Positions 3,921 to 42,114 of a stretch of 64,000 nt of DNA are shown here, piece by piece; the first letter of the stretch is position 1; the number at the start of each line of letters is the position of its first letter. The notes below the pieces were generated by a model. It worked only from the letters and a program-made list of their open reading frames with translations, was not told the origin of the DNA and ran no database searches. Origin of the DNA: Camelus dromedarius (lineage: Eukaryota); the NCBI RefSeq assembly GCF_036321535.1, contig NC_087436.1:17422001-17486000 (forward strand), in the 5' to 3' direction. Position numbers and translations under genes: made by a program.

Positions 3921-3983
3921 CCTGCAGAAACATTCTCTTAAATATATTCAACTGAATCAGACTGAAAGCAATATCAAGGGTAC
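3921..3983 (-). pseudogene. Candidate exon (63 nt, phase 1-1): GTLDIAFSLIQLNIFKRMFLQG
   Basis: Strong acceptor TCTTCTTTTCCTTCCAG|GT, open phase-1 frame, weak donor AGG|GTGGGC. Confidence 0.3.
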
Positions 3984-4172
3984 CTGGAAGGAAAAGAAGA
4001 CAATATTTCCCAAAATGACCACCTGAAACTTAAGAACTGAGAAGCAGGGGAAAAATAAGTTAACTAAAGGAACTCAAAGTCCTGTCTCCCCTGACATTCC
4101 CAACACACCTGAAGTACATCTGCAGAGTGTCACCACAGGAGTGTAATTTTAACCCCCATTTGGGATACATAC

Positions 4173-4337
4173 CTCCTTATTCTCCTCCAGTTATTTCCCA
4201 GAAGTTTCAGGAATTTGTTCACTGAATTATGGAGCTTCGCAGAGCACAAAGTCTGGAGTGATGATCCCAATTGCTACAAACCAGAAACGGCTCTGAGTGG
4301 GAGCCATAATAAACAAGGTAGAATGTCTAAAAACAAC
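4173..4337 (-). pseudogene. Candidate exon (165 nt) with stops in all frames
   Basis: Acceptor CCCTTCCTCCTGTAG|G and donor GAG|GTATGT are both strong. Length is a multiple of 3. Phase-0 end reads SEQIPETSGK*LEENKE. Confidence 0.45.
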
Positions 4338-5056
4338 CTACAGGAGGAAGGGCACCATTTGTAATCAATCTAAAAAAAATGCTATAAGAATACATACAGC
4401 TATTTCATTCTTTTATATCAGAGCTACTTGAGAAGACCAGAAAGAAATATATTAAAATAATAACACTAGTTATCTTTGTTGTTTGGTAACTCAATTTCTC
4501 TTTATTTTGTATGTTTTCTATTATAAAAATTTCTTTCTAAAATAAAAGCAGATTACATATCAGAAATGGTGATAACCAGAAAATATGATTCAATACTGCC
4601 ATAACTAATTTGCTTCAAACACTTGGTGACAAAAGCAGAATCTAAAACACACATACACGCATCATCCTGGAATTATCCTTTCTAAGGTTAAGACAAATGT
4701 CACTCCTCCGATTGGATAAATAAACAGTCTTTCACCTAGGAATTTGCCCTAGGAAACAAATTTTGTTTAGCACTTTTATAAACGATCAGAAATGTAGGGA
4801 GACATTTTTCAAGTGTGTAGATGGTTTGGAATGGTCTGTTCAATAGAAATAAAGTGATGAGAAGTATATACAGAATGATCACACAAGAATATGATGTAAG
4901 CAGACAAATGACCAGTGAGTTTTCGGGTAGGCAAAGTAAAGGAGAAGTCGAGGTGGCATTTACGGAGTTTATACGGTTGCTGCCATCGAAGGGATTACAA
5001 TCTAGATAAGGTAAGGAACAGGGCACTGACGGTCAGGGCGATGCATTTGGTCTTAC

Positions 5057-5134
5057 TATACAAAAACATTGACAGATTGGGCAAAGACATATTTATGGAA
5101 GACAGATATGAGTCTGAACTCATTTTAGCATTCT
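5057..5134 (-). pseudogene. Candidate exon (78 nt, phase 1-1): ENAKMSSDSYLSSINMSLPNLSMFLY
   Basis: Acceptor CCTTTCTAG|AG, donor ATA|GTAAGA, frame fully open (part of ORF 4995-5207). Confidence 0.35.
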
Positions 5135-5599
5135 CTAGAAAGGTTTTATTTTCTCTTTGAGCAATATCTTTCGATAAGCCCCAAATTAAATATCCTTTGT
5201 AACACACTTACTTACTATATTTTTTGTTTAACTCATGTTTTCCAAAAGGTAGGGGATGGGGTGGGGAACAAACAGACCAACACTCTATAACCCTTACTTA
5301 ATGGATCTATCATTACCCTCCTCTCCACAACTGTGTTAACATCTATTATAGCATGATGTAACTATTAGGCATTTAGACAATGAGGAGGCCATCTGGCAGA
5401 GTCTATATGAGAATGTCTATGTTGCCAAGCATATCAGGAACCATCTGAACTACACGTGTAAGAAAAAAAGGAGGAAGAAAATTATTCAATCACACAAACT
5501 ATTTCAAAATATAAAAGCCAATATCAAACAACATCTGAAAATACTTGCTCTTTCTACTGAAGTTTGATACTTCTCTAATCACGCTTTTTTTCCTGTTTT

Positions 5600-5700
5600 C
5601 TGTTTTATTCATTGTTATATCCCCAGCCTCTGAAAAATATAGATGGCATATATGTTAGCCACTTAATAAATGTTCACTAAATGAATTACAAATAAATGAA
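5600..5700 (+). mobile_element. L2 3' end
   Basis: 'tattcattgttatatccccagc...tggcatata...taataaatgttcactaaatgaat' matches the L2 terminus. Confidence 0.65.
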
Positions 5701-6124
5701 AACTATTTTTGTATATGAGAAACTTTCTGACTGAGAAGAGATAGCTCCCAGCACCCATGGTGCCAAATACTGGATTCTCTTAATAGGAACATCTTATCTT
5801 TGTCTTGGGGTCCATCCAAATTCTACCATTCTTCAAATTCATGCTGTGATCTGTATCTTTTCTTAAGATTTCCTGACCACTCCTGCCTTCACTGGTCTCT
5901 CAATTAGACTTTACTAGCCCATCATATAGCTTTGCTTAGTTCTTTCCCATTGTTTATTGTGGATACATGTTTTCTGAATGGACTAAAATCCTTTCAAGAC
6001 CTGCCTTCTCCCTAATTTACTAGTATTTGTATTAATAAGACATGGCCCCTGCCCTTGAGGGGCTTACAGTCCGGTAGGAAGTTCCATAAATAAATTAGTT
6101 CAAAAAGTCAATCATTACACATAC

Positions 6125-6597
6125 TATGGTAGACATTTGAGTTAGCCCTCCTAACCACAACCCCACCCTCATTCTATGGGAAGGGATTGAAAAGGTGATC
6201 CCTATGTTCCCCATATGTGCTTGAAGCTGTCTCTAAATCTGAACGAGGACTCACCAGATTCACTTGAATGATGGTTTAAAATGAACGTGATGTGACAGCC
6301 ATTTTCCTGCCTCTGTTGATACTATCAAGGCAAGATCATACAAACGTGTTTGTGGTGACTAGACTCCACACCCCAGAACCCAGTCATCAGCTTTATGGCC
6401 ATGGGAGAAAGTGTGGCAGCAGCACCATTTTCTGACCTCTAGGTAGCAGCTTTGGTGGCGTGACCTTCAAGTCAATAGTTCAGTAGTGGCTTTGTAACTT
6501 CTCTTCCACCTACCCTATGAGCATCCAATTACCTGATTTAAACACTGCTTGAAACCACTACTATTTTCTAATCTTGCACTGAACCCTGACTGATCCA
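6125..6597 (+). mobile_element. ERVL solo LTR (LTR41/LTR33-like)
   Basis: 3' terminus 'ctgcttgaaa...cttgcactgaaccctgactgatcca' is typical of the LTR41/33 group. Confidence 0.6.
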
Positions 6598-6769
6598 CAT
6601 GGTATGGTACAAATACAGAGAGAACCAAGTAGGGACACCAAAAAGAGAACAGGTGACTTTCCCAGAGGTACAGAGTAGTTAGAAAAGTATTAATGGAAAG
6701 ATAATTGTCCAACTGAGCCAGGAGGAAGCACTCAGTATAACCCTGAGAGCCCACTAGTAACTCACAGAG

Positions 6770-6950
6770 TTACAGAATGTTTATATCAAGAAACTTAGAG
6801 AAAATCCATTTCTGGTCCCTTTACTTTAAAATAAAGGGAAAAAGACTCTCAGAGAGGACAAGGGACTTTACCTGAAAAACAGAAGGTATGAGTCCAGTGA
6901 ACAGCTAAGCTGAGGGCAGAACCTTCCAATGTCCAATCCACTGATCATTC
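6770..6950 (-). mobile_element. MIR/MIR3 SINE
   Basis: Core-like 'agactctcagagaggacaagggactttacctga'. Confidence 0.5.
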
Positions 6951-7219
6951 AACTTGAATGATCCTATAATTTTTATTAAACAAAAATTACCCAGAAGTAC
7001 ATAGGTATTTTACCTCTTATTTAAAATAAGCAACACAATGTCAATACAATGTTACGGCCGAGTTTCTGTTTATCGTTTTTAAAGAATTAACACAAGAATT
7101 CAAAGTGAGCAGAAAACATTTTCAAATGTATATTGAAATGGGTAACCTCAAAAATAATAGATGAAAATCAAATTCTTCTAACCACTAAGTTAGTATACAC
7201 GTTTTTATTGCCTATTTTA

Positions 7220-7380
7220 TTATTATTATTTTTTAAATTTTGGGGGGGAGAGGTAATTAGGTTTGTTTGTTTGTTTGTTTGTTTGTTTAAATGGAGGTAC
7301 TGGAGATTGAACCCAGGACCTTATGCACGCCAAGTTAGTAGAGCGTGCACACTCTACCACTGAGTTATACCCTCCCCCCA
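7220..7380 (-). mobile_element. Camelid tRNA-derived SINE (Vic-1 type)
   Basis: 'ggggggagaggtaattaggttt(gttt)n aatggaggtactggagattgaacccaggacc...actctaccactgagttataccctcccc'. TSD ttgcctatttta (7208-7219) / ctgactatttta (7381-7392). Confidence 0.9.
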
Positions 7381-7412
7381 CTGACTATTTTAAATAAACA
7401 CCTACTGGTTAC

Positions 7413-8300
7413 CTTATTGGTCTCAGGAAATCTACTTCCCTCTCTGAACACACAGGACTGTCCTAGCATTGTCCCCAATCAGACAACACAAAGTTAATAA
7501 AGGCTTGCACATCTCTGCTGGTTCTATCAAGTTCCCTCAAAGATATTCACTTATGAATCAACCACACCTCTTTAGGAAAGCATATCACAGCTTCATGCTC
7601 TCCATGACACTTCTGAATCCATTTAATAGACAAACTTACTTGAAAATGTTCCTCCTTCAACTTTGAGTATGATATTTTAATGGTCTTCATTAGAATAGTC
7701 AACAGTCCCTTCCTTCGCAAACATTTAACTTACTGAAAAACACCGGGATCATACAATGGTGTGTCCTATTTCTGGAAGAAATGACAAAAAGTTTCTAGTT
7801 CTAAGACCCTGATTTCAAACAGTGTAATCACCTTCATTTTGCTGGGCTAAATAAGGCTTAATGCGATTGAATTTCTCTTACAAAGTCATCAAGTTAGTCA
7901 TAGGCAGGAATGGTGTCAGCCCTTGCTTTTCCTTGTCTTCCCAGTTTCAAACACAGAAGAATTCACTCCCCAGGTTCAGCCTCATCCAAATCCCAAGCCA
8001 TGCCTAACTAATGTTGACAGCAAATTGGGAGCTCTGTCCAGAATCCAAGAACCAGTTGCCTAACATAGACGCAAGTACCGGCAAATCCATAAACTTCAGA
8101 TTGTCATGATCATTAAACCCTTACAGCTGGGCTCATGCCCTTATTTGCATTCCATTCCTTCTGTGTGAAGCCTTGCCTGAGTACCTTCTTTGATTGAGGG
8201 ACACCAGTATATCACTTGTCATTTCAATGTCCCAGAGGGTACTGCCTGCCTCCTGGACCCTCAGTCCTGGTTGGGGTGTTGCTCCAATCAGAAGACACAT
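7413..8300 (-). pseudogene. Candidate large decayed exon (888 nt)
   Basis: Acceptor GTTCTAG|AT, donor AAG|GTAACC. Protein-like fragments in shifting frames: DVSSDWSNTPTR, VPQSKKVLRQGFTQKEW, *ISLRELDRTSRDVQAFINFVLSD. Confidence 0.4.
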
Positions 8301-8652
8301 CTAGAACTATGGATTGCTCTCAAGACTTAGAATGCAACAGGTATCTAGATAGCATTCTTGCAAAAGAGGATGACTTGCCTAAATGACTAAGATCTGAAAC
8401 ACAATATTAGAATTTTAATTTCTATTTATTTTTATTATGTTTATTTCTTAAAGTCATAATTTGGGTGTGTTGTATAATGTACCTATGTGCTAATAAAGTA
8501 GCTCATAGAATAATATAGTAAATAAAAACAGAAATTTGTTTTGGAAGTGCATGCTGAAAAAAATATGCATGATCAAGTAACTCTGGAGATCAACACTTTA
8601 AAAACATGTACAGCAGAGTCTCATCTACCTGAGGGGACTCCCTGGGATGTTT

Positions 8653-8771
8653 CTAGACTGTAAGCTCCACAAAGGTCTTGTTCATGTTTGTTTGTGGGCA
8701 GTATCCTCATCCCTAGATGAGGATGCCATAGAACAGGCTTTTAATAAATCTTTGTTGAATGAATGAATGAA
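8653..8771 (+). mobile_element. L2 3' end
   Basis: 'ctagactgtaagctcca...aataaatctttgttgaatgaatgaatgaa'. Confidence 0.8.
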
Positions 8772-8835
8772 TCATGGATCAATAAATGACTTGAAAATTG
8801 ACCCAAACCAAGAGCCACCACGTATCCACAGATAC

Positions 8836-9305
8836 TATGGCCAGTTGAAGAGCATCCCCCCAAATTCATGTCTACTTGGAAACTAGAATTTGGAAATAAA
8901 TAGAATTTTGAAACATTATTAGGAAATAGGTTCTTTGCAGACATACTTAAGAACTGAGATGAGATCATACTGGATTAAGGTGGGCCCTAAAATCCAATGA
9001 AAATGCCTTTATAAGAGGCAGAAAAGGACACACAGAGACAGAGAAAGGGGTCCTGTGAAGGAACAGGCGGTGATTGGTAGAGACAGATGGAGCCATGCAG
9101 CTCAGCTACAAGCCGGGGCACGCCTGGGACCACGAGACACTGGAATTACAGGGAAGGCCCTTTCTAGGGCCCTCAATGGGATCATGGCCCTGCTGGCACC
9201 TTGATTCTGGACTTTAAGCATCCAAATGTACGTGAGAGTACATTTCTGTGACTTTAACACCAAGTTTGTGGTGATTAATTATGACAGCAGTAAGAAACTG
9301 ATGCA
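8836..9305 (+). mobile_element. MaLR solo LTR (MLT1B/MLT1C-like)
   Basis: 'ccccccaaattcatgtc...ggaaataggttctttgcaga...gagatgagatcatactggattaaggtgggccctaaaatccaatga...ccctgctggcaccttgatt'. Confidence 0.85.
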
Positions 9306-9522
9306 AATATGATATTGTAGATGTCAGGCCTTTGCCCCAGCAAGTTTAGTCCTGTTAGACCCTACTCACACACCCTTCTCACTGATCTACTGTAATGAAT
9401 CCAACACACCCTCCAGTGGAAGCTACTCACGACATGCAAGGCAATGCTAGAATCTAGTTCCGCTGACTCTTAGTGTAGCATTCTGTCCACTACACCTTAC
9501 TATTTACAACCAGAGAACTCAC

Positions 9523-9595
9523 CTGTCAAGAAAAAGTTCTCAGAAAGGTCTAAGGTATGCGTTGTGGGTGAGTACCTAAGAATTTATGATGTAAC
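9523..9595 (-). pseudogene. Candidate exon (73 nt, phase 0-1): VTS*ILRYSPTTHTLDLSENFFLT
   Basis: Acceptor TTTCAG|GT, consensus donor CAG|GTGAGT, one in-frame TAA. Phases match both neighbouring candidate exons. Confidence 0.45.
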
Positions 9596-10158
9596 CTGAA
9601 ACTCTTTGCTCTTAAAATTGCTTATGAGGATAAGTTCCTTGACCTCTGATATATGCTGGTTCCAGCCAGTTAACAACTATCACGAGACACATTATAGTTT
9701 TATTTTGGTACTTGATCTTCTGGTCACGGCAAAAACAAGGAAATAAAAATTTGGGGTTTTTTTGTTTGTTTGTTTTAACTCACCTTTGTAATTGAATGAG
9801 CACTGATCATGTGTAAGTATTTATAGAAACAAAATTTACTTAAAATTTAAATCAATCAAGTTGCTTGGAATGCTCAAAAGGAGAATCCAATTTCATTCTA
9901 CTCATGTTTTTGATCAATCTCTCATCTCTTCAATGAGCCTCTGGAACATAACATAACAATTTATTTAAAACAATAGGTGGTCAGAATGTCTTTCATATAC
10001 TTTAAAGGGAACTTATATGAACATATCTATGATGGTGCTTGGCAGAGAAGAGGCACTCAGGAGGTGTTAGAGCTATCATTCTGGATTAAAAGGGAAAATA
10101 AGCATTCAGAACAGCCCCTTTGAATTTAATTGTTCATTTGCTTGTTGGTATTAGTTAC

Positions 10159-10349
10159 TATGGATGTGGTTGAAACTATCATATCTTCAGGTTCTTGAGC
10201 TTATTTATAATGGTCTTTAATTTTGAGTATCCAGAAAAAATGTTTTTGGTGACTTGGAAGTGTTGGGATTCTGTGGACAAGATAGGGTCACACCGGGTGT
10301 GATGGTCACAAAGAAAGGGGGTATCAAGCCAAGGCAAATGAACTCCCAC
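10159..10349 (-). pseudogene. Candidate exon (191 nt, phase 1-0): GGSSFALA*YPLSL*PSHPV*PYLVHRIPTLPSHQK...K*AQEPEDMIVSTTSI
   Basis: Acceptor GTGTTTTACAG|GT, donor ATA|GTAACT. Three TGA and one TAA, no frameshift required. Confidence 0.4.
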
Positions 10350-11939
10350 CTGTAAAACACACGGTTTTAAAAGCAAGGAAGCAAAAAGCAGGTGTCTTTC
10401 CAAGGGTAGTAGTTCTGAAAAGGAAGAAACAAGAAGAATAGAAGGATTGAGAAGCGAAATTCTGATGAAGATATTCACAAGTGATCAGAATTCAATGAGG
10501 CTGAGATCCACCAACCGGCACTGAGCCCCTTTTAGGAGCCAAACAGTGAGTGAAAATGAGTAAAATCAGAGCCTTGAGGCACCATCTAGCAAATTCTTAC
10601 AATCTCTTTGAGAAAGAAAAGAGGGAGGAATCTGAAGAATCTTTTGTGTCTATGCACGGTCAATTGATTGAACTCAGCTTTAAAAGGAAACCCCAGGGAG
10701 CAAGTCTTTGGTATATTCATAAGAGTGCATCGTACCCCGCCTGCACTTCTGAATATATGTAGAAAATGAGTATGTTTTTTGTGTATTTTACTTAACCTAT
10801 GAATTAGTAATGTGTGAACAAATTGGCTGTAAAACCAAAGATAAGTATCACACAGAGAGAGCCTAGAACAAAGGATATGGCAAAACAATGGCGTGAAGTC
10901 TCACATCCAGATGTGACTTTAAAACAAAACCAAAACAATTAAAGATCACAAGAAAAAGATTAGTAGTGTCTGCAGACAGGCAGAGGCCTTGGGGGTAGCT
11001 CCCATTTTTTCCAGAAGGTTCAGGGTAATGCAGGGAACCCTAAATGACAGCCAATCAGATGTGCTGACTTGGAGGCGGCCCAGGGGAAAGTCCATGGGGT
11101 CATGTTCTGGGAATTTGTTTTCAGTTTGACTTTTACATCAATTACTTCACTGACAATATGGAAAAAAAAATTTCTATGAAATGTAATGTTGTCAGAAAGA
11201 TGGGAGGAAGGAAGAGAGGATTCAAGCATCAACTAATGGAAACAAATTAAAAAATATACTGACTGACCAAGTCGGGGTGTATAAACTTACACGAAGGATG
11301 TAAAGGTTTATGTGAGGTTCAAAAAGTCAGTTACATTAGTACAGGGTGGTGATCCAGTTCCTAGAAATTTATGTTGCCATTTATTTTTTTACGTGATTCT
11401 CAACTTACATAATTCAGGCACACAGACACACGCACATGCTATCAACTGAGTTTACATTTTAAAAAAATACAGTGCCCAAATTCAATACTGTTTTATTTAA
11501 ACTGGTTCAGATTTTGTATGGTCTATTGTAGCTTATTCTGATTTCACCATGAAGGACCCTGAAGCAAAGAACTGGAAATGTTCACCCAGAGGAGAAATCA
11601 ATTTAGGGTATCAGTGGTGTCCTCAGACAGCTGAAGGAATAACATGGAGGAAGATTTGACCAATTGTGTTATAACAGAATGCAGAAGAAAGACAATGGGC
11701 AAATATATAGGACTCGCTTCTGTTGTAATAGAATGAATCCTATTCTGTCAACCGAGCTGTTTTGCAATGGTCAGCCTGCCTCAGGGCGTGAGCCCTGCAT
11801 CGCGGAAAGTAGTCTAGTAAACGCTGGTGACAACTGACAACAGAGGGGAGTGGATAAGATACTGTGTCCTTTTCTGCTCTAGGGTAAATAGTACAGATAA
11901 TAGAAAAACTGTAGAGATGAAAAGCAGTTATCCACATAC

Positions 11940-12070
11940 ACACCATCTCTGTAATGTCAGCTCTTTAAACCTCCATGAAAACTATTTTCGAACCTACTTC
12001 ACTGTTCTCTGGAAAATTAGGTTGAATAACCTGTGTAAGGCACCTGTCACATAGTGGATGCTAAATGAAT
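11940..12070 (+). mobile_element. MIR SINE 3' part
   Basis: 'aacctacttca...aaaattaggttgaataacctgtgtaaggcacctg..cacatagt'. Confidence 0.55.
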
Positions 12071-13329
12071 CTTGGAAAAATATATAATTCTTATGATAAT
12101 AATTATATTATTAGTTTCTGCAGGGTAAAACTGGCAAATTTCTTAAATATCTATCACTAGATAGAAGAAAAGAAAAACTGAGAAGTTAAGTCATGTCCCT
12201 GGTGCTTTCCTATTCTACCTCTGTAATGCAAGATTACAGGTCACCCTATGATTACCTTCTGACTGCTTAAACATGTGAACTTCCATCTGCAGAAAACATG
12301 TACTTGAATTAAAACATTCATACTTTACAGATGAGTCAGTTTGCTGGTAGAAAGAAAAAGCAAAACCAATAAATTAATTAAGATTCAAAAATCTAGTTTC
12401 AGACAAGTACTTTAAATCTACTGATGTTAAAAAAAATGCAATTTAGAGTGGGGATTCTTTTTTCTGGAAGTTTCTTTTTCCTTCAAATATTATCTGAAAA
12501 GGGGGTCCTTTCCAGAAAGAAAATTGTATCATTTAAAATATTCTTTAGAGGTTGACCTCTGAAAGGTGATGTTTGATCAATAACTTTGGAAATTGCTCTA
12601 CCTTTTAGCTTTCTCTTTATGAAAAATGGACAGTCTTTAGATAGTTTAGATTATAGATTAATTTTAAGAATTTTGTTGCAATGTCCTTTAAGTGTCAGTG
12701 AGTTAAGATTTGCAATTTAAAGTTTGTATCCTTAAATGCAAGAGAAATTGTGTTGGAACTTAGCCAATAAATCATAACTAAAATACTCATAATAAAAGCA
12801 TTTGTTCTAGAGAGAAACTCACTTAAATACAGTGCTGGGGAAAAAAAATAAAAGAAAAAAGATTGCTGTGAGGTAGACAGAGTGAGGAATATAGCTTTAC
12901 TTAGAGAACTTCACAAAACAGCCCAAAATTATGCACAAAAATTATTTTGAAGATGGTTCATATAAATTTTTTTTCCAATTTTGAAAGCAGATGAAAGACA
13001 TTTGCTATACTAAAAGCAATAACTTTCACCCAATCTGTGAACTCTGCCAATTCCAAGGATCTGGGTAAAACCAGTGTTCTGAGAACTGGTACCTGGACAA
13101 CAGGAGAAATGAAGCTTATGCAAATATATTAGAAAGTTGATCCAAACAATGATCACCAGAGACAGGCGAATAGAAAGAAAATACAGAGGGAAGGTACAGG
13201 CAGGAGGGGGGCATGGGGGGGAGGGGGGAAGAACAGTGACATTTGGTGATGAACCATATGTGCGTGGTTTGAAAGACATGACTGAATTGTTTTTGGTGCA
13301 GTATTATTCTGACATTTAGAATGAGGCAA

Positions 13330-13560
13330 TTTTCCATTTCCATTAATGTACTGCCAAATAGAAGGGGAACTGTCGCGAATTAAAGACTAAAGAAAGCTGT
13401 TCCTCAAAGTTGTATTAAATCATTGCGGATGAACTCATTAAGATCAAATTAATGAGGTAAATTGTACTAGGCTTAATTAGCAAGAAAACCCAAGGAAGAT
13501 TATACAACTTCACTAATTTTCAATGGCCCAACATTAAGCACCGCCGGCACGTGACGTGAA
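13330..13560. promoter_or_regulatory. Candidate enhancer / conserved non-coding element
   Basis: Apparently unique sequence dense in TAAT/ATTA homeodomain cores. Ends in a CpG cluster with overlapping E-box and CRE half-site (cacgtgacgtga, 13548-13559). Confidence 0.35.
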
Positions 13561-14399
13561 AGTCAGAGATCTTCCTTACTCTCTACAAACCTCTCCGGTA
13601 CCTCAGAAAGGACTCAGGATACCTTAGAGATGAGAACAAATTTGAAGTAGTATCTCAACAGACCTTATGACAACCAGAAGACGTTAGAGGAAATAGCCCC
13701 CCATACCCACCTATGCACCCCAATCTTCAAACAGAAAAACAAGCAAAACTTGACTCCTTTGTGCAAAATAAGATAAGAGGAAAAGACAGGTTGTCTGTGA
13801 TCCTGGCTATGCACTCAGCACCCCCTTTCTAATCTCAGCATACAGAAGATTATTACAACTATACAAATAAGTCTCCCTATTCTACTTGAAGTCTAGTAGA
13901 CATGCTATTTTTGCTTTGCTCAGATGAGGGTAGAAAATCCTCTCTGTGGTCTTCAGACCCCTCTAATGAATTTCATGTTTCTAACAGAGGACCTGAAAAA
14001 TTATCCTTAAGGTTCTCCTGATCTCAAGACTGCAGGATTCCCAGATCCTCCAAGGTGATCAGCTCCTATACAATCTGGTTACAGAGCAAGTTAGACTTGT
14101 CGTTTCTATATTATTATTAGCATTGAAGCTCTAGAAATTGTAGACAAGCTGGAAATAACAAACAAACAAAAAGGCAGCAGCACAACACATATCACAACTT
14201 GCCCCTAATCTGTGCAACGGCCACACCCTACATTTTATCTTAAGTCCATACTCTCCAACTCACCATTAAAGTTCTGGAAACTTTTTATATGATGATGCTC
14301 TGTCCTCTCATTACATGTTCATCACTGGTATTTTGATAAGTCTTCTTGCTGTCATGGAGAAATAGAGACCAGTCAGAGCTCCGTGATGGTCTGGATCTA

Positions 14400-14500
14400 A
14401 GCCCAAGATCATCTCTTTTTTCCTCCCTGTGGAATTCCCAGTGCCTAGCATGTTGCTTGGAACACAGGAGGCGCATAATAAGTGCTCTTTTTTTAAATGG
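14400..14500 (+). mobile_element. L2 3' end
   Basis: 'ttcccagtgcctagcatgttgcttggaacacaggaggcgcataataagtgct'. Confidence 0.6.
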
Positions 14501-16032: not shown

Positions 16033-16233
16033 CAAGATACCTCTTCTGTCCTCTGACTTTAGAAACAGCATCTTCATCAGCTGCAGTACTACTTAGAACC
16101 TTTTCTAATGACTCCTTTATGCTTTCCTCCCTGAGGTACACTGATAGTTTCTTTATCATAAGAACATTCACAATTTTAACAAAAATAAAGATACTAGATT
16201 TGATTATTTTTCTTTAAAAATACATTTTTGCTT
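16033..16233 (-). pseudogene. Candidate exon (201 nt, phase 1-1) ending EESIKESLEKVLSSTAADEDAVSKVRGQKRYL
   Basis: Acceptor TCTCATATTATTTAG|AA, strong donor TTG|GTAAGT, length a multiple of 3, one TAA in the phase-1 frame. Confidence 0.5.
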
Positions 16234-17970: not shown

Positions 17971-18057
17971 ATTGATAAAATTTCACACACTACATTTGAC
18001 CATCTACTGTGGATCTAAAATCAGGTTATAATTTAGAGCAATATAAAATATTATGAC

Positions 18058-18586
18058 CAAGGATATTCTCAAAGGAATATTTTTAATATGTCTATGTGAA
18101 TAATCAGAATATCATGGAAAATTTCACAGTTGGAAGAGGTTCAGAGAAATTAATTTTTTAAGGTTGGAGGCTTCACAGTCGGTTTGTTGCAGCGTCTTGG
18201 ACGAGAACTCAAAGACTCCTGATTAAGTTCTCTTTTGTTATACAGAACTGGAGGTGATCACCTCTTCTCTGAAAATTATTAATAGTTTTCATTTCAGGAA
18301 AAAAGTTCCTTTTTTGGAAATAGAAGTCATTCCATATGCTTAACTTGGAAAGCCAACTGAGTTGCTTTAAGAAGAAAAAATGGTCAAGTTTTAAGGTAAA
18401 ATATCTATCAGCTTCCAAGGCAACTTCAAATGTCTGTGGTCTGGAAAAGGCTCTTCCTTCACTCAGCAACAGACCCCTGTCTCATAATAGAGTTGTTTCT
18501 TCTTACTGAACTTTTCCTTTGTTGTTATTACTGAGTATTGTAATTAAACATTCTTCCTGAGTCTGTTTGGCAGCTGCCACTGTGTT
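18058..18586 (-). pseudogene. Candidate decayed exon (~530 nt; 3' boundary uncertain)
   Basis: Acceptor GGTTCCTTAG|AA. Phase-1 frame reads KHSGSCQTDSGRMFNYNTQ**QQRKSSVRRNNSIMRQGSVAE*RKSLFQTTDI; a later segment reads SPPVLYNKRELNQESLSSRPRRCNKPTVKPPTLKN. Donor weak. Confidence 0.4.
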
Positions 18587-18922: not shown

Positions 18923-19173
18923 TTGTAATTTCACCAAATCCCCGCTGCGAGATTATTATGCAGATTTATGAAGGAATATCACTGAAGTGGTTCTTGGCTA
19001 TGTCTTCCGTCACCAAGGACTCAAAGTATGTAAACCTCAAAAAACTTCCAATGTATTTACTGCTACCGGTTTCATCTTCTGAACTTTTCTGACATTATCC
19101 CTCACTCTCTGTTTCATCTCTAATTTTCCCTTCGATACTCTTGCCCTTGAGCAAAGAGGCAGCATCATAACAC
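18923..19173 (-). pseudogene. Candidate decayed exon (251 nt)
   Basis: Acceptor GCTTGTAG|GT, weak donor CAA|GTATTC. One frame reads YDAASLLKGKSIEGKIRDETESEG*CQKSSEDETGSSKYIGSFLRFTYFESLVTEDIAKNHFSDIPS*ICIIISQRGFGEIT. Confidence 0.4.
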
Positions 19174-20163: not shown

Positions 20164-20164
20164 G

Positions 20165-20202
<38 letters not shown>

Positions 20203-22831: not shown

Positions 22832-23388
22832 CTTGTTTAGACGCACAGCTGTTCATAATTTTGTCTGCATTTGCAAAGAGTTCCTGTGCTGCAGGAAGGC
22901 GCTGATAAGAAACAGTATGTAGGTCAGTGCAGGCATAGATGATGTCTTTACATCCTATTGTGTGAAAAATTTTCTGCTGATTTTGCCTTTTGTTCTAAAA
23001 TGCGTCCATTATGCAGGCAGGCCTATCATCATTGCTTCTCAGTATCTTTATATATAAAGATGTTTTATGTTTGTAAAACTTTATCTGATTTGCCTTAGAT
23101 TTCCTAGTTCTAGAAACACCAACCTTGGGTTTGACCCCCATTTCCTGTTTCATCAAAAATACCTCTTCATCCCTCTTCTCTTTGCAGACGGAAAGACAGG
23201 CTGTGTGCGACCTACACAGTCCTGTGAGTATAAAGAGTGTTTCAGGCAAAGTGGGCCTTGGAAGGAGTTGGGAGCATTTTCCACTGGGTTTGCCTTTGAA
23301 TGTGAGGAAGTTAAAATGACTTCCCCTAAGTTTTCTTACTTTGTTACATTTGCTTGTTTCCAGGATCTCTAGATCGCTAGCCCTCTAA
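22832..23388 (-). pseudogene. Candidate decayed exon (~555 nt, ends phase 1)
   Basis: Acceptor TGTCCTCTTTTAG (exon start 23388, alternative 23384), donor AAG|GTACGG. The frame from 23384 runs 184 codons to the donor with a single TAG (22997-22995). Confidence 0.45.
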
Positions 23389-31009: not shown

Positions 31010-31680
31010 CTGTATGGTAATCAGTCAACTAACGTTCATATGAAGGGAATTTGGCAATACCTATCAAAATAAGTGCGCTTACTTGCAAAAAAAAAAAAAA
31101 ATCCCCTTTATACCATAACCTAGTGATTCTACTGCTAGGAATTTACCCAGTTGAAATACATTTTCACATACAAATAAAATAACCAATGTAGAGGGTTATT
31201 TCAACCTTTTGGTAATAACAACTGTTGAAAAGAACATCTAAGTTTTCACTAGTGGCAGACAGGTTAAACATACTATAATACAGCCAGACAATGGAATACT
31301 CTACAGCCATAATAAAAATAAGGAACTATTTTACATACTTCTAAGGAAAGAGTTCCAAGATAAAGTATAAAATGGAAAACTCAAGGTAACAAAATAGCAC
31401 GTATAGAATGCAATCATTTTTGCACAAAGGGTGAATAAACGTAAGTATACGTATATGTACACACACACATGCACTTGTGTATGTATAAAATAACTTTGGA
31501 AGAATGTATAAGAAACTTAATCTGCCTACAGGGAGAACTGGTTGACAAAGAGAAAAAGGTGGAGGGAAATTTTTCCCTATATTCTCTCTCATTTATTTTT
31601 GAATGTCTTTGAACCATGCAAATGTATTGCTTATTCAAATACAATACAATACAATACAGTATAATACAATAAAAAAGGAA
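31010..31680 (+). mobile_element. Old L1 3' region (L1ME-like)
   Basis: 'aatttggcaatacctatcaaaat...attctactgctaggaatttaccc...acaatggaatactctacagccat'. Confidence 0.75.
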
Positions 31681-33449
31681 GTGACTTAAATTATTTATTT
31701 TTAAAGAATTAAAATAGAATGTGCTTACAGCTGCCTCTCCTCACATAGGATTCTAAGTTTCTGGGGAGTTCTGAGTAGGGCCGTAGGGCACAGGAACCCC
31801 GTGACTGCTTTGCTCATGAAGATAGAATGGTAGATAAGGCATCCAAGACATGTCAGGAGTGGAACCAGCAAAGAGGGAACAATATATTTCATAAGATGGA
31901 TAAAAACTTAATTGGCCCAGAAATAGTTTCAGGCTAATGTTCAAGCTGGGTGGAGGTCACCACTGAGCCTCATACCTGGGAAGTCGTTTGGCCATGTTAT
32001 GCGAGGCGAACATTGTTGATAACCATGGTCATATCTATGACAGAGTCTAGGGAACTCAGAAAACATAATAATGATGAGTACACTGTAAAATAAGAATGTC
32101 AAAAGAGATGTCACAGTTTTCTTAGATAACATCTTTATTCTGAGGCTGTCTCTGAATCACAAGTGGACAGTCAAGTCCCAACTCAGCCCCTGAGTGACTG
32201 TGCCAGTCACTTGGCCACCCTCAGCCCAGCTTTCCTCTTCTGTTGAGTTGTGTTGCTGGGAACAAGTAAGGTCCTTGATTGTCAAAGAATCAATCACAGA
32301 AGCAGTGGTATGTTTTTCCCATTAAACACAGTGAAGCCAAGCTTCTCTCCACCATTTGCCCAATGCTTGGTCAGAGTCAAGTGGTGACATTCTATTAAGT
32401 CTTGAACGAACTAAGGGTCCTGGGCAGAGACTCCTAAAGCAAAGAGTCTCTCTCTCTCTCGAGTCTGCCCTAGACTCATGAGCTGACCCCAGCAAGTCAC
32501 CCACTCTCCTTGACCTCAAGTCTTTTGTTTTAAAAATGAGAGAATCAGACTGTGTAAAGTTTCCCCCCATTTCTAAAATTCTAAATTTTTTGAGGTACTT
32601 TGATTTATTCCTTCAACCAGTACTTATTGAGGGCCTATGTGCACAGCACTATTGCTTTATAAATCTCAACTCAAAGTGATTCAGAGTTCTAAAGACAATT
32701 CAACTAGCAGCCATCTTAAATGTCAATATTTGATGTTACCTTCTTTTCTAAGTTCTTTTGAGAACAGAACACCACATAAATGAGATTAAATTATCAGTGA
32801 AAAAATATCAACTATTCCATTATACAAAGAAATTACACTTATTTTAGGATGTATTTATTATTATTGTTGTTATGGTTATGTTCCTTAGCTACTCATTTTA
32901 AATATCCTAAAAGATGTGCTCTCCCCTCATTTTGACCAATAGTCAGTCTCACTCCTGTTTCCAATCTGTAGGTAGGGCTGAAACAGCTGCTCTGTTGCCT
33001 GTGCTTTGCTCTCTGATTTAGTTAAATAAGCCCCACAGGTGACATGAGAGGCCTTGCTCTAGAATCATCCATCTATCCTGGGGACACAGTACAAGACATG
33101 CTGTGAGTGAGAGGAGATGGGGCAGCAACATGGTTATTAGACATATCTAGAGTTATGGAGTGTTTTATGGCTTTTATCTGCTTTTTACTCATCCTCTACC
33201 AAGAGATCACTTGTGACCTTAAATTTATGGCATAAACAGTATCAAGAGACAAATAGGAAACTAAAAAAAAAAAAAAAAAAAAAAAAACACAGATAGTAGA
33301 AAAATGTGCAACACCACCAGTAGACAGAGTTCCTATAAATTGATAAAGAAAATTCTACCTTAGGGAGACGTTTTAATTATTCATTCAACCAGTATTTATT
33401 AAGACCCTAGGTACCCAGCTCTGTTGCTTTATGAAATGGATACGAACAA

Positions 33450-34020
33450 CTAGCAAGTAAGAGAGGTAAAGGGCCAATAAATGTGTGAAAAGATGCTCAA
33501 TCTCACTAAATTACAGAGAAATACAATCTAAAATAAAACAAGATGATATGTTTAATGTTACAGATTGATGAAATAATTAAAAGAGTGATTAAATTCAGTG
33601 CTGATGAAGGATGAGGGGGAAAAGTCACTCTCATTTTGGTGGGATTGTGAATTTCTATAAATCATTTTGGAAACTTTTCTGATAATATGTATTAAAAGCA
33701 AAAAAAACATGTAAAATATGTCAGAAGTAAAAATATAAATGACCTATGTCATTTTTTTCTAGTGCATATGTAAATATATACTATTGATATAAAATAAGTA
33801 TATATATAACACAGAAATAATAATACCCATTAAATAATACCTATCTAAATAATAAATATATGTGAACAAGTGTGTTAACCACAGCATAACTTTCTAGCAG
33901 TTATAAAACTATATATAGGCTGAAAGGACATAATAAGTTGAACAATTGTATATGATGGTAGGATGACATGGAACCACTAAAAGAATACATTATTGGCCTT
34001 GAAAACTGTCATAATGATTT
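33450..34020 (+). mobile_element. Old L1 (L1ME-like); continues at ~37803-38170
   Basis: 'tgtgaaaagatgctcaatctcactaa...agagaaatacaa' ORF2-end motif. The matching 3' UTR resumes after the nested block. Confidence 0.7.
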
Positions 34021-35149
34021 GTAAAGCTTTACTGATATACAACTGATATAGAATAACATATATATTTAAAGATTACAATTTGAAAAGTTTTGATACACAC
34101 ACACACACACAAATTGTGACTCCATCAATACAATCAAGATAACGAACGTATTTTTCCTAAGCCCCAAGTTTTCTCATGCCTCTTTGCAATCTCTCCCTGG
34201 GGAAAGTACCCACAATTTCCTCTCCACCTCCCTTCTCCCCATCTGCAGGCAACCACCATCTGCTTTCTGTCGCTATAAATTTGCTTACATTTTCTAGAGG
34301 GTTGCATAAATGGAAGAATTATGCACTCTTTTTAGTTTCTAATTTCTTTCACTAAGCATAATTGTTTTGAGATTCATCCGTGTTGTTTCATGTATCAATG
34401 GTTCATTCCCCTTTCAGTGATGCGTAGTATTCCACTGTATGGATACACCAACCTTGTTTATCTATTCACCCATTGGTGAACATCTGCATTGTTTCTAGTG
34501 TTTGGCTATTACAAATAAACATGAAAATGTGTGTACCAGTCTTCCTGGGGACACATGCTTTCTCTTGAATAAATCCTGGGGTGGAATGGCTGGATCATAT
34601 GTAAGTGTATGTTTAACTTGATAAGAAACTGCCAAACTGTATTCCAAAGTAGTTATAGCATTTTACATTCCCATCAGCAGTGTATGAGAGTTAGAGTTCT
34701 ACTAAGTCCTTCCCAACACTTCATATGATTTAAAGTTCTAGCCACACTAATAGCTATGTAGTGGTATCTAACTGATGTTTTATTTTCAATTTTATAATTG
34801 AAATTATAATTATGTTGAGCATCTTTCCATGTGTTTATCTGATACCTAAATATCTTCCTTGGTGAACTATATATTTAAGTCTTTTGCTCACTTTTTTTAA
34901 AAGTTGGGTTATTTGGTTTTTTTTTTTTTTTTTTTTGCTCTTTATTTTTTATAGATTTCAATTCAAGTCCTTTATCAGTTATATACTTTGCAAATATTTT
35001 TCCCAGTCTGTGGCTTGTCTTTTCACTCTCTTAGCAATGGCTTTTGAAGAGTAAAAAAATTTAATTTTAGTAAAGTCTAATTTATCAATTGTTTCTTGGA
35101 TCATGCTTTCAATAGCATGTCTATGACAACTTTGCCCAACTCAAGATCA
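34021..35149 (-). mobile_element. L1 3' end / ORF2 C-terminus (L1MB/L1MC-like)
   Basis: 'gttttgagattcatccgtgttgtt...tagtattccactgtatggata...aagaaactgccaaactgt...ttttacattcccatcagcagtgtatgagag'. Confidence 0.85.
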
Positions 35150-35326
35150 CAACCAACCATGGATCAAATTCAATGCATAGTTGGTTTAATCTGCAAATAT
35201 GGATCCCACAAATGTGATTGGCTCCCTGTACTGCAGCATTTTATATAAGGGATTTGTGTGTTGGTTGATTTTGGTATCCACGGAGGGTCCTGGAACAAAT
35301 TCTCTGCGGATACTGAGGGATGACTG
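35150..35326. mobile_element. MER2 (TcMar-Tigger) fragment
   Basis: 'caaccaaccatggatcaaa...cattttatataagggatttg...gattttggtatccacggagggtcctggaacaaat...ggatactgagggatgactg'. Confidence 0.85.
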
Positions 35327-35329
35327 CAT

Positions 35330-37800
35330 GAAATCTTCTTTGAATCTTTCTTAGAACTCACCAGTGAAACTCTCTGGTCCTAGGCTTTTGTCTTTTGGGA
35401 AGTTTTGTTGTTGTTGTTGTTGTTCATTTGTTTTTATCACTGATTTGATCTCTTTACTAGTACTTGGTCATTCAGATTTTCTATATCCACATAATTCAGT
35501 GTTGGAAGATTGCATGTTTCTAGGAATTTATCCATTTCTTCTAGGTTGCCCAGTTTGTTGATGTATTGTTCATAGCAATCTCTTTGATCTTTTACATTTA
35601 TATGGTACCAGTTGTAACTTCTCCTCTTTCAATTCTGATTTTATATATTTGGGCCTCTACCTTTTTTCTTGTGATGAGTCAAGCAAAGGTTTGTCAGTTT
35701 TGTTTACCTTTACTTTAACAAGCCTTTAATTTCATTGATCTTTTCTATTGTGTTTTTACTCTTTATTTCCTCTCTGACCTTTATTATTTCCTTCCTTCTA
35801 ACTTCGGGCTTTGTTCTAATTCCTTTAGGCATGAAGTTAGATTGCTTATCTGAGATTTCCCTATTTCTTAAGGTAGGCCTATATCACTATGAACTTCCCT
35901 CTTAGAACTACTTTTGTGGCATAGCATAGATTTGGGAATGCTGTAGTTCCATTTTCATTTGTCTCTAGGTATTTTTAAATTTCCCTGTGATTTCTTCCTT
36001 GACCCATTGGTTGTTCAGTAGCACGTTGTTTAATCCCCACATATTTGTCATTTTTATAGTTTTATTCTTGTAACTCATTTCCAGTTTCCTATTTTTGTGG
36101 TTAAAAAAGATGCTTGATAGGATTTAAATCTTTTTAAATTTATTGAGATCTGTTTGTGGACTAACGTGATCTATCCTAGAGAATGTTTCATGTGCACTTG
36201 AGAAGAATGTATATTATGCCACTTTTGGATGGAATGTTCAATATGTATTTGTTAAGTCTACCTGGTCTACTGTGTCATTTAAAGCCAATTTTTCTGTATT
36301 GACGTTCTTTCTGGGTGATCTATCCATTAACATAAATGGGATATTAAAGTCGCCTACTGTTTTTGTATTGCTGTCAATTTCTCCCTTTAAATTTGTTAAT
36401 ATTTCCTTTATATATTTAGGTACTCTATGTTGGGCATGTAAATGTTTACAAATGTTATATCCTCTTGTATTGATTCCTTTCTCACTATGTAATGTCCTTC
36501 TTTGTCTTTTATTACAATCTTTGCTTTAAAGTCTATTTTGCCTGATATAAGAATAGCTATATCAGCTTTTTTTGTTGTTTCTATTTGCATGGAATATCTT
36601 TGCCATCCCTTCACTTTCAGTCTGTGTGTGTGTCCTTACATGTGAAGTGGGTCTCCTGTAGGCAACGTATAAATGAGTCTTGTTTTTTTTTTTTTAACCA
36701 TCCAGCCACTCTATATCTTTTAATTGAATGTCTATTTCCTTCCCCAGTTAGGGAAGTTTTCAGCCATTATTTCTTCAGTTAAGTGTTCTGCCCATATCTA
36801 TCTCTTTCTTCTCCTTCTGGGACCCTTACAATGCAAAGATTATTCTGCTTGATGCTGTACCTTAAGTCCCTTAGGCCATCTCCATTTCTTTAATTTCTCT
36901 TTTCTGCTCTGTTTGGGTGATTTTCACTGCCCTGTCTCCAGGTTGCTGATTCAATTTTCTGTTTTATCTAATGTGCTGTTGAACCCCTCTAGTGTGTATT
37001 TTAGTTTGGTTACTGTATTCCTCAGCTCTGTGATTTCTGTTTGTTACTTTCTTATATTTTCTGTCTCTTTGTTGAAGTTCTCAATGTGTTCATACATTCT
37101 TCTCCTGAGTTCTACGATAATTTATATGACCATTACTTTGAACTCTTTATCAGGTAGATTACTTATCTCCATTCATTAAAATCTTTTTTTCTAAGGCTTT
37201 GTCTTGTTTTTGTTTGGAATATATTCTTCTGTTTTCTCATTTTGCTTGGCTTTCCATGTTTGTGTCTATGTACCATTAGGCAGAACAGCTTTAGTGAGGC
37301 TGCGAGAGCATGCTAAGGTTGGAGCAGGCTGTTGTTTTAGTGATGAAGGTGAAGAGCACTGAGGGCAGGGCAGGTGCATACCCATTGCATTGCAAGGCTG
37401 TGTTTGTATGTACCCCTTGGGGTCCCTGGACATTAGCCTTGTTGGTCTCGAAAGCCAGATATTTTGGAGATTATTTCTCCTGCACAGGTCCCAAAGATTA
37501 GGGTGCTCAATGTGGGGCACAAATCCCTCATTCCTCAGGGAGTAGCTCTATATGTGTGAGACCCTCCCCCCCACTGTAAGTCAATGTATTAGGGTTGGGG
37601 GTTTTGGCAAGATCACTTCTCTGTCTTTCCTACCTGTCTCGATGTGGCCCCTTTCTCACTTATTGTGGAGGGGCTGTTCAGCCAGTTACCAGTCCTTTCT
37701 GAATGGTAATTGTTCCATATGTAGCTGTAGATTTTGGTGCATTCATCAGAGGAGGTGAGTTCAGGAACCTTCTATGCCTCCATCCTGGCTGCTTACTGAA
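35330..37800 (-). mobile_element. L1 5' portion: ORF2 endonuclease region, partial ORF1 and 5' UTR (degraded)
   Basis: ORF 36408-36614(-) KGWQ...KKADIAILISGKIDFKAKIVIKDKEGHYIVRKESIQEDITFVNIY is L1 ORF2 endonuclease. ORF1-like and 5'UTR-like sequence follows to ~37800. Confidence 0.9.
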
Positions 37801-40092
37801 TCCATAGTGATTTTTCAGAGCAACAAAAGTAGATTGCAGCAATGATGTGTTTAGTATAATCCAAGTTTCATAAAAGTCAAGACAGCCAAAAATGTACATG
37901 TGCATAAACACTTTGCTATACATTTAGATGTGATGCAGCATGAAGAGAAGACAGCAAAGATGCACACAGGCTGTTAACATCACCACTTACTAGAAGCTGA
38001 TAGAATATAGCCATCAAGAACTGGGGTGCAGAGTGAGTGGGTAGGAGAAGATGCTTCATTATTTTTCTTCATGTATACTTACATTGTTTTATTCATTGCA
38101 GGGAACCTGGATGACTCTTATAATGTTCAAGGGAAATTTGATAAAATAAAAAATTTTTAAAGACCAAAAAAAAAAAAAATACACCGGACATCAGCAGAAG
38201 GGACAGCAAAATAGGAAAAAGCAAGAAGAAGGTGGGGTTAAAAGAGTCTAAGGCAGAAGGAAAGCAGAATGTCCCTCATGTGCATTGCCTTCATGCAAAA
38301 GATCAGCCAACACTCAGGTACTAACTTGAAGGAATAATGAGCAGAGAGCCTTGCCTTACCATATATGTATATATAGCTCTTGTGTAACCTGTCAAAAGGA
38401 CCTCTAGAGTGTCAGCATGTGATTTAATAAAAGCCAAGATTCCTCTCCTGCTGAAAGTTTCATGTAAATCCAGATCATTTAATTACCCCCATCATCATTC
38501 CCTGTTCCATCTACAAATATTTCCAACAGTATTATCTGTAAAGTTACAAACTGCTTTCATCACAGTCCTGTTTCTATAAGGTGTTAGACACTGTGCTTAC
38601 CATTTTATAAATAAAACTTAAGTTCTTTATTTTATGACCTATAAATAATAATTGAGTTACAATGAAAACATTGCCATTCTTTTCTCCTTTCTCCTTAAGG
38701 GCCAGGAAACACAGCTTTGCATTTCAAGCACCCAAGGATACTATGATTCTTACTACACAGGAAACATGATAGGATAAATTAAAGGATAAATATGGTGAAA
38801 TCCATCAGGAAAGTCTGCCAGTTAAGGATGTTCAGATTAAAATTAATCACAGATCCTTTACTAACAGGTAGCTATTATTTTTCCCCCAAATATTACCTAG
38901 ATGATTGCCTTAAATCTCTACTTCATTTTGTACATGCAGACATGGTCTCAAACACTCTGTAACAAAGATGGGAAGCAATCCTTCTCAAGTTAACATATTA
39001 TTTCTGTGCAATTTCCACCATGAACAGAGCATATTAATGTATTCATTCACCATCTGTGTCTGTTGGTACCATGGCCAGTTACCCCAGAGGACTAAGACAC
39101 CCTATTTTGTAATAGACATTTGGACAATCACAGGGACTCCCAAATGAACAATGTGAGGTCTCTATTATGTGCAGATGGAAGACAGATAAATAGGCAAACA
39201 CGGCAGGTTCAGCAGTTTGCTTGGAATTCTCAGTCCTGGAGGATTAAGTTAGGCACACAGAAATATGTCAAAGCCAGTCTCCATCCTTATAAAGCACTAA
39301 AAGTGAAGCTTAGAGGAGAATTTTTTGCTAGTTTTTCATTTGTATCAACAAAGAAAATTGTCAGTTCATTTAAGAAGCCCCCTTTCTTGGGAAAAGCCCC
39401 GTTAACCTGCCCATTCACAATGTCCTTCAAACATCCTATTTTGTTTTCTCTGTGGGCAGCTTCAGTTCAGGAAAAAACAAAAAAACAAAAAAACAGAAAA
39501 CAAAAGCCATAGGCTTGCGGCATGAATGAGAGATGGGGAAAGAAAATGGCTGACCAGCTCTTCTTTTCTGTCATTTGGGAAACACAAGAGTATCTACTTT
39601 AAAAACCAATTATATTTAAACTTAAATAAGTCACTTTGAGGCACACTCACCATTTTTTAAAAAATGAGGATAATCATAATATTTGTATTATTTCTTTTGT
39701 TTGTAAATGGTTAACTTTTCTGCTCTAGAAACCAAATGTGGTCCTACCTAGTCATTCATCATTCTCATGGGCTCCCTAGAGAATTATGTACCAATAATTG
39801 AGACCTGAGGAGCCCTAAACATTTTTCTTTTAATCAGTATATATGATTCACTGTTATATTACTTGGTCTATAGCTCTGAGATTTTTCTGTTATCTGGTTG
39901 CTATTTTAAGAATGTCACATAAGGTAAATTATTATTTTTAGCAAAACTGAAATACACCTTTCATATAAAAATGCTAAAGGAACTCCCTGAGATTTTTCAG
40001 GTATCTGGATAGAATGTTATAGAGTTCATCTGCTGAATCCTCAGTCCAGAGCAATGATCCCTTCTTCCCAAAACATATATCTACTCCAAGTA

Positions 40093-41200
40093 GCTTATTC
40101 ATTTATTCATTATTCATGTATTGAGTGCTTATTATGTGCCAGGCACTGTAAAATATACTGGGGACAAGTTGATAAATGACTCATTCCTTACTCTGGAGTA
40201 TCGCATAGTCCAGAGGAGGACAAGGGAAGCATACAAGACAAATTACAACTCAGCCTGATAGGAAGCAAAATAGAGTTATATATAAAGTCTTATGAAAGCA
40301 CTGAGAAAATGTGACCAACCCCCAGCCCTAACTCAGGGAGTCTAGGAAGACTTCATAGGAGTGACAAAATTTCACCTGAGTCTCCAAGAATGTATAGAGG
40401 TTGATCAGGTAAAGAATGGATAAATGGATGAAGTGTTTGACAGGATGCTGATAACTGAAGAGACAATTATCGGCATCTGCTGGGTTCTAGGCAGCCTTGA
40501 GAATGGTTCTCCTGATAAGAAGAACCACATTTGCAAATGCAGAGATGCATGAAAAAAACACAGCAAGCTTAAGGAATGACAAGATATTTAGGTTACCTGG
40601 ACAAAAGGTCTGTGCAGAGGAAGATGTAAGGAAATGAGGTCGAAATTCAGGTTGAGATCAGCAAGTAAATTCTCTTAAATCCAACGTCAAAGTGTTTGTA
40701 CTTCGTTCTGGAAGACACAGAAAGGCAAGGTAGATTTTTAAGCGGAGGATTTCAAACATTCAAATTTATTTACTGAGCACCTAGTATATGCCAGGCCTTT
40801 TCTAGACTCAGCATTTAACAGTCATGAAGAAACAGACAAGAACTCCTGAATTCATGGGGCTCATAGTCAAATGGGAAAAGGCAGACAATAAGCAAAGTAA
40901 GTAAGAAAGAAAGTAAATTCAGTAAATGTAAAATAAAGTAAATATAGTAAATTTAAAGGTGGTAAGTGCTAGGGAGAAAAATAAAAACAGGAAAGAGTGA
41001 AGTGAAGTAATTAGATTTGTGTTTTAGAACAACTCTCCTGGATTATTCAAAGAGATTAGAGATAGACTGCAGACAGATATACATGTTAAGATTTCATTAA
41101 AGCGTTCATGGCAGGTACGGTAATGCTAGGAACCACAATTACCCAATGGGAATGAAGAGAAAGAGACAGATTCAAAAGAATCAACAGGACTCTATTAGGG
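40093..41200 (-). mobile_element. L2 LINE with a second nested L2 fragment (~40755-41000)
   Basis: 'ttattcatttattcat...tattgagtgcttattatgtgccaggcactgt', a second 'tttactgagcacctagtatatgccaggc', and 'attagatttgtgttttaga'. Confidence 0.8.
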
Positions 41201-41659
41201 ATGTATTGTATATAAGATTGAAGAAGAAAACGACGGATAAGAATTATGCTGTTTTCTCATCAAAGTTTGAGTAATCATTAGAAAAGGAAGATCGAGAGTC
41301 ATGTTATTGTTGTATGATCTCATTAAGGTCATAAGTTGCTTAACCTCTCCTAGACCACTAGAAGATGTTACTCTCCTCATTCTTTGAAACAAGAAGCACT
41401 AAATACATTCAACTTCTTGAGATAGTTCAGTATAGCCAACAATACTTCAGCACCTGGGAAATGGTTTCTTGGTATCTGAATAGTCATCCAATGGGTCATC
41501 TTGAGAGAAAATATTTGGAAAAATTCCTGTACTTTTTTCTGATTATACCATGAACTCTAGAGGTAGAGACATTGGCCACCAGAAGACATCTTTCATCCTA
41601 TTTTAGCTCCACAAGTCAGAAGAAGCACTGAAGTCTAGTGGTGTACAGAGAAAACTTAC

Positions 41660-42114
41660 AGTGAATTTTTAGTGAATGGTAACTGATATTACATTTGTTA
41701 ACATCTCTGGATGTGATGGACACATTTTGGGAGTCAGTGTCCGTCACTTGGCTCAGACTTTTTTAGACCGATATCATGATGCCTCCGGATATATCCCACC
41801 CTGATAATGAATGTGCTGGTCTTCTCCGAGTCTCCTTGGTGACTCTCAATGCTCCCAACCACCTGTGTCGTCTGGCATCTGTGCCTGTTGCTGCAGTCCT
41901 GGCTGCCGCATCAACCACAACTCCATCCTTGTGTGGGCGAGCTGTGGAGACAGATGGTCCCTCGGTACAGGGTAGGGACTGTCAGTCATGGAGGAGAAAC
42001 ATGAGGCTGGAGCGTGGAGTGTAGATCAAGAGCACGCCTTGCATGGTTCCAATACCCGAAGTTAAAATGGAGCAGCTCCATATCTGTTCCCCCTCAGGGA
42101 GTTCCTGGACCCAT
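41660..42114 (-). pseudogene. Candidate first coding exon (455 nt) of the decayed gene
   Basis: Acceptor GTCTTTCAG|ATG with a CTAAT branch-like site ~30 nt upstream, donor ACT|GTAAGT, locally CpG-enriched. Frame MGPGTP*GGTDMELLHFNFGYWNHARRALDLHSTLQPHVSPP*LTVPTLYRGTICLHSSPTQGWSCG*CGSQDCSNRHRC...IGLK. Removing one A from the A6 run (41759-41764) opens the frame to the donor. Confidence 0.5.

Follow-up and report, generated by a model that had tools for sequence, protein, structure and literature searches.

The stretch of Camelus dromedarius DNA analysed here (64,000 nucleotides of assembly GCF_036321535.1, contig NC_087436.1, positions 17,422,001 to 17,486,000; hereafter the window) contains, on its minus strand, eleven segments that an earlier note had proposed to be the broken exons of a unitary pseudogene. 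We consider that some of these segments may be remnants of the exons of an old dead gene, and we give to this reading a probability slightly below one half (about 0.47). The segments carry stops and frameshifts, and one of them is homologous to DNA found elsewhere, at a distance similar to that of neutral sequences. The observation as a whole is partly confirmed. The exon remnants would correspond to some of the segments and not to all, the likeliest being 23384-22832 and 16233-16033, together with the first part of 8300-7413 and the pair that begins at 4337 and 3983. Their source would be one fast-evolving, multi-exon protein gene of the minus strand. Its reading frame would have been lost long ago, before or soon after the split from the organism that carries the homologous DNA; the sequence would have drifted neutrally since this loss and no protein would be made today.

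The support for this reading comes first from two segments (Table 1). The segment 23384-22832 contains one stop in 184 codons, which corresponds to a z value of -3.8 against shuffles (the antisense also reaches -2.5), and its donor is in the top 1% of the strand. The acceptor 23384 is located 4 nucleotides from the position initially chosen (23388); it drops the first stop and sets the phase to 0. The amino-acid composition of the segments is at background level, with the exception of 23388-22832 (z 2.5). The second segment, 16233-16033, displays a codon periodicity of z 3.2 in sense versus 0.8 in antisense, a stop test of z -2.5 and a donor in the top 1.1%. Comparison with random pieces of the same length reveals that the best frame has fewer stops in only two of the eleven segments, 23388-22832 (p 0.009) and 42114-41660 (p 0.04). 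The latter is not significant against shuffles (z -1.1), and the stop test of 18586-18058 is at background level. A segment like 23384-22832, strong donor included, is obtained in 5% of locally shuffled strands with strict thresholds, which were fitted post hoc, and in 30% with looser ones.

The only significant match was obtained for the segment 8300-7413, one frame of which was used as query with phmmer against 1.84 billion proteins. It detected the protein P0001 (160 amino acids, E value 4.3e-18), which belongs to no Pfam family. P0001 matches the window in two frames (tblastn); its start is the counterpart of position 8300, and the window has an in-frame stop just upstream of this counterpart. 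Of the bases fixed by the protein, 16-21% differ from the window, and about 7 insertions or deletions are present in 460 nucleotides. Over the determinable sites the divergence is about 16-19%. Such a distance is usual for neutral DNA when placental orders are compared, and P0001 probably comes from another mammal. P0001 was considered as the true protein of the gene and rejected, because 8 of its 160 residues are tryptophan and because, among the 10 third positions that can be determined (Trp/Met codons), 6 are G in P0001 and A in the window, as expected of an off-frame open reading frame (ORF) picked for being open; it looks like a chance off-frame ORF on homologous DNA. Its DNA was not recovered from metagenome contigs, where peptide patterns gave 284 candidates, none of them confirmed, and a degenerate motif gave no match.

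The differences with P0001 were counted by codon position, after the alignment had been split at a 13-nucleotide gap and the gap edges trimmed. In the first block (260 nucleotides) and in the frame that the earlier note had predicted from the acceptor, 15 of 65 third positions differ versus 5 of 51 second positions (two-sided p 0.08). With both blocks pooled, these values become 23/111 and 13/109 (one-sided p 0.056), the frame of the second block having been chosen post hoc. We take this third-position excess as a hint. The predicted frame imposes no forced stop in the possible DNA of P0001, versus one in the other shifted frame. Between 8300 and 7841, a G of P0001 faces an A of the window 15 times and the reverse is observed 4 times, the C/T changes being 3 to 3. 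The G/A imbalance arises in part from the need of P0001 to be open.

Several results weigh against the reading of a dead gene, beginning with the boundaries. On the minus strand, an AG precedes and a GT follows each of the eleven segments, as had been claimed, and the three peptides quoted in the earlier note are present (18586 frame 2, 19173 frame 1 and 16233 frame 2). From 42114 downward the segments as first delimited measure 455, 557, 251, 529, 201, 191, 73, 888, 78, 165 and 63 nucleotides. Splice sites were scored with approximate position-weight matrices of our own; ranked in this way, the top 5% of the GT and AG sites of the strand include seven of the eleven donors but only two of the eleven acceptors. 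Acceptors that fit better than those first proposed were found for two segments: 23384, described above, and 10414 (instead of 10349), which is in phase with the donor at 16033 and leads into 77 open codons. However, the window contains 2011 candidate exons of similar quality on the minus strand versus 2274 on the plus strand, and 14 versus 13 exons that combine a strong acceptor with a strong donor. The AG..GT boundaries of the segments are therefore not beyond chance frequency, and the seven donors and two acceptors are what picking by eye would produce from so many comparable candidates. The looser definition of 23384-22832 likewise recovers four segments on the real plus strand and two on the minus strand.

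These counts argue for a second explanation, which is quite plausible and to which we assign somewhat less than an even chance. There would be no gene, and the segments would be ordinary non-coding DNA present in a single copy, which may be intergenic, intronic or included in a long non-coding RNA, and which was chosen by eye among thousands of AG..GT pairs; the homology with the DNA of P0001 would reflect the shared ancestry of neutral sequence. Against it, 23384-22832 and 16233-16033 stand out singly, and the third-position excess, although weak, appears in a frame predicted beforehand. The stop density is as expected without a gene. The seven exons from 16233 down, once joined, contain 35, 33 and 34 stops by frame in 552-553 codons (background 5.6%), and the frame proposed for this chain contains 34 stops in 552 codons (6.2%). 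The disabling lesions described previously are thus real, since the joined chain is open in no frame, but this is equally true of non-coding DNA. The consistent phases of this chain, which had been put forward as support, carry no evidential weight: phases follow from the lengths alone, so that any such chain is phase-consistent by construction. A chain is informative only if the frames that it implies are also those that are open, and here the implied frame is the best in four of the seven exons and the worst in three.

Lesions were also counted over the eleven joined segments, with a frameshift allowed at a cost of 2. We observe 41 lesions versus 44.3 +- 4.5 in random real pieces (p 0.24) and 48.4 +- 3.7 in shuffles (p 0.02); the antisense, with 36, has fewer lesions than the sense. 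Sense is no better for codon periodicity (2.05, antisense 2.34, random pieces 1.2 +- 1.4, all segments combined). Simulated coding DNA accumulates 20, 29, 35, 39 and 43 lesions at 5, 10, 15, 20 and 30% of decay, respectively. The observed value is consequently reproduced by a decay of 20-30% (39-43 lesions), in agreement with a gene dead for a long time, but the simulation does not separate an old death from the absence of a gene. Moreover, 23384-22832 has one lesion versus about six expected under the old death implied by the 888-nucleotide segment. The former is too clean and the latter is at background. Either the openness of 23384-22832 is fortuitous, or the segments have no single shared history. 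Over the whole alignment with P0001, the two determinable positions differ at 17/106 and 27/139, without bias (p 0.6). Finally, each of the positive signals was chosen by eye or post hoc.

A recent death is disfavoured. In this third explanation, which we judge very improbable, the loss would be limited to camelids or cetartiodactyls, or the segments would be an unprocessed copy of a gene that still functions in this genome. The single stop in each of 23384-22832 and 16233-16033 would agree with it. However, 5-10% of simulated decay gives 20-29 lesions versus the 41 observed, which makes it unlikely that the gene died during the last 10% of divergence if all the segments are exons, and the 888-nucleotide segment is separated from the DNA of P0001 by several frameshifting insertions or deletions. 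The searches described below, which used single-frame queries and proteins mostly up to 2000 amino acids, should also have detected a close ortholog or parent gene if one were alive.

The key support expected in the earlier note, a living protein colinear with two or more segments, was found neither in Pfam, nor in PDB, nor in the large protein collections, to which two of the eleven segments were submitted, and none of the segments tested matched a named protein; this agrees with the absence of a gene. The 25 segment translations gave no Pfam family at E values up to 1, and the same result was obtained with 12 translations of the intervening DNA and with nine further translations outside the L1 element described below. 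Three open stretches gave two families below the cutoff, both for a plus-strand ORF and none for the minus-strand stretches. Eight queries against the sequences of PDB gave a best E value of 0.39; the best E value of 16233-16033 was 1 and 19173-18923 had no match. No homolog of 42114-41660 was detected in Pfam or PDB. Word-indexed searches of proteins up to 2000 amino acids were negative for three queries, with no homolog of 325-2000 amino acids for 23384-22832, and the ESM Atlas returned no usable match for P0001 or a 60-residue open stretch. The large collections were queried with two of the eleven segments (four single-frame queries), and three of these searches had a length limit of 2000 amino acids. 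Two resemblances were considered and rejected. Roc GTPase/ROCO, COR, LRR and RGS-like domains, suspected by eye, were found in none of the 25 Pfam queries and were absent from the PDB matches of the three frames of 8300-7413. For a GH18 chitinase-like domain, 10414-10159 matched chitinase-3-like 1 at a chance-level E value of 1.7 in PDB, with no Pfam family and nothing in the neighbouring segments. Searches of the literature on gene loss in camelids or placentals returned nothing that could be tied to this locus; as they were made without a gene name, an existing publication may have escaped them.

The weight of these negative results depends on the power of the tests, which was measured on decayed coding DNA of the window. 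The L1 element at about 35300-37300 has no matching Pfam family despite an endonuclease visible by eye, and its stop test reaches only z -1.4; a piece resembling CR1 gives z -1.8, and the codon periodicity is about 2.2 for both controls. The coding tests are therefore underpowered here. Because known decayed coding DNA scores as weakly as the segments, weak signals are what a dead gene would be expected to give, and the blank homology searches are weak evidence because Pfam misses the L1 control and only two of the eleven segments were submitted to the large collections. That a genuine decayed L1 also escapes the tests that were negative here is a point against the absence of a gene. A codon-usage scan tracked only the G+C content. 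The eleven segments, apparently repeat-free as judged by eye alone, have more purines (0.53 versus 0.48), fewer TpA (0.63 versus 0.79) and an opposite A/T skew when compared with their flanks, and each of these values lies about 1.8 standard deviations from random pieces. This composition is exon-like, although exposed to the selection by eye.

The proposal of a gene of roughly 1,100 codons or more that died long ago stands at about even odds against non-coding DNA picked by eye. A long-dead gene is compatible with all the results, and a few weak signals point to it without singling it out; neither a colinear living protein nor the phase chain speaks for it. A more specific form of this proposal is unlikely: a large gene of vertebrates that placentals lost early and that was never catalogued as a pseudogene, whose living form would be unannotated or too diverged, and whose 3' part would still be transcribed as a spliced non-coding RNA in reproductive tissue.

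Table 1. Positions of the candidate exons and of the repeat-derived element in the window.
Feature	Positions	Strand	Characteristics
Extra candidate exon, upstream of the first segment proposed	43058..43345	-	288 nt; phase 1-1; 95 open codons, stop-free
Candidate exon	41660..42114	-	455 nt; G+C 0.50; stops 6/2/7 by frame
Best candidate exon	22832..23384	-	553 nt; 1 stop / 184 codons; no frameshift required
Candidate exon	18923..19173	-	251 nt; weak splice sites; best frame one phase off the upstream donor
Candidate exon	18058..18586	-	529 nt; heavily broken; weak donor; stops 8/10/15
Second-best candidate exon	16033..16233	-	201 nt; phase 1-1; one stop
Candidate exon	10159..10414	-	acceptor 10414 (score 9.7) stronger than 10349; 77 open codons
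Candidate exon	9523..9595	-	73 nt; highest-scoring donor of the strand; poor acceptor; negative coding scores
Candidate exon	7413..8300	-	888 nt; at least 17 stops in each frame; homology with the DNA of P0001 over the first 460 nt
tRNA-like head of a short interspersed nuclear element (SINE)	7292..7374	-	Rfam RF00005, 34 bits; followed by a GTTT/AAAC array
Candidate exon	5057..5134	-	78 nt; very poor acceptor
Candidate exon	4173..4337	-	165 nt; strong acceptor and donor; 4 stops in the frame first proposed versus 1 and 2
Candidate exon	3921..3983	-	63 nt; strongest acceptor of the strand; open in the frame first proposed

The additional candidate 43345-43058 is one of the 14 strong-strong pairs of the minus strand (acceptor 10.8, donor 4.2) and is included in the ORF 43032-43367. 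It has no Pfam family and its best E value in PDB is 1.2; by itself, this candidate exon is at chance level.

The window (64 kb) is AT-rich, with a G+C content of 0.34-0.48, and contains mammalian repeats. No recognisable gene was detected among its 32 ORFs of at least 100 amino acids. A scan of positions 4300-64000 with Rfam revealed the tRNA-like SINE head and no other RNA family; we take this SINE to be of the camelid type. A decayed L1 occupies about 34000-37800 on the minus strand, where a piece of ORF1, the endonuclease and the 3' end are visible by eye, and it is broken by a second insertion near 35300. On the plus strand, the region of about 500-1275 contains an ORF of 169 codons (766-1275) with matches to two Pfam families below the cutoff; by eye this ORF is presumably a piece of ORF2 of an ancient CR1/L3 long interspersed nuclear element. 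Two copies of an element of about 310-330 nucleotides, 82-86% identical to each other, are located at 54428-54759 and 61933-62241 on the plus strand. TATA-like and polyA-like words are seen in them by eye, and they are probably solo long terminal repeats. On the minus strand, each of the four blocks tested has an excess of T over A of 0.04-0.08; these blocks lie outside the L1, within and beyond the proposed gene. This skew fits a minus-strand germline transcription or a replication asymmetry, and is not specific to the segments.

For the region 3900-10400, where candidate exons represent 1458 of 6501 bases, 0.29 of the sampled words are present in two RNA runs of one study on reproductive samples, a value that does not indicate which parts are transcribed. 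Several runs, of RNA or possibly RNA, hold 0.29-0.39 of these words (0.05-0.39 among all the runs listed); we do not take them as evidence of splicing or expression.

If the reading of exon remnants is true, the mammalian record would gain one more gene loss, undated and unnamed, whose value would hinge on the role of the living ortholog, and the reading of raw sequence would be able to find gene fossils missed by protein searches. If it is false, the case illustrates how easily a phase-consistent exon chain is drawn from non-coding DNA. Neutral decay after loss would be an ordinary mechanism in either case.

According to Zhang et al. (2010, PMC2864566), calling a unitary pseudogene requires an aligned functional ortholog, synteny with the flanking genes and the absence of a functional copy in the genome. 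The segments resemble the unitary pseudogenes described there by their proposed multi-exon structure and by stops and frameshifts at what would be the original locus, and differ from them in that, of the defining features given there, the lesions alone were demonstrated here. In a whole-genome PhyloCSF study (Mudge et al. 2019, PMC6886504), 44 of 169 new human pseudogenes are unannotated unitary pseudogenes; these rest on a codon signal from multiple species, whereas a single homolog, partial and back-inferred, is available here. The remnants of the vitellogenin genes VIT1-3 in therian mammals were demonstrated by syntenic alignment to chicken and by a test of chains against background (Brawand et al. 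2008, PMC2267819). Pfam detected no vitellogenin resemblance in the 25 translations of our segments; the comparison with these old exon remnants concerns the method and the age, and does not extend to the identity of the gene.

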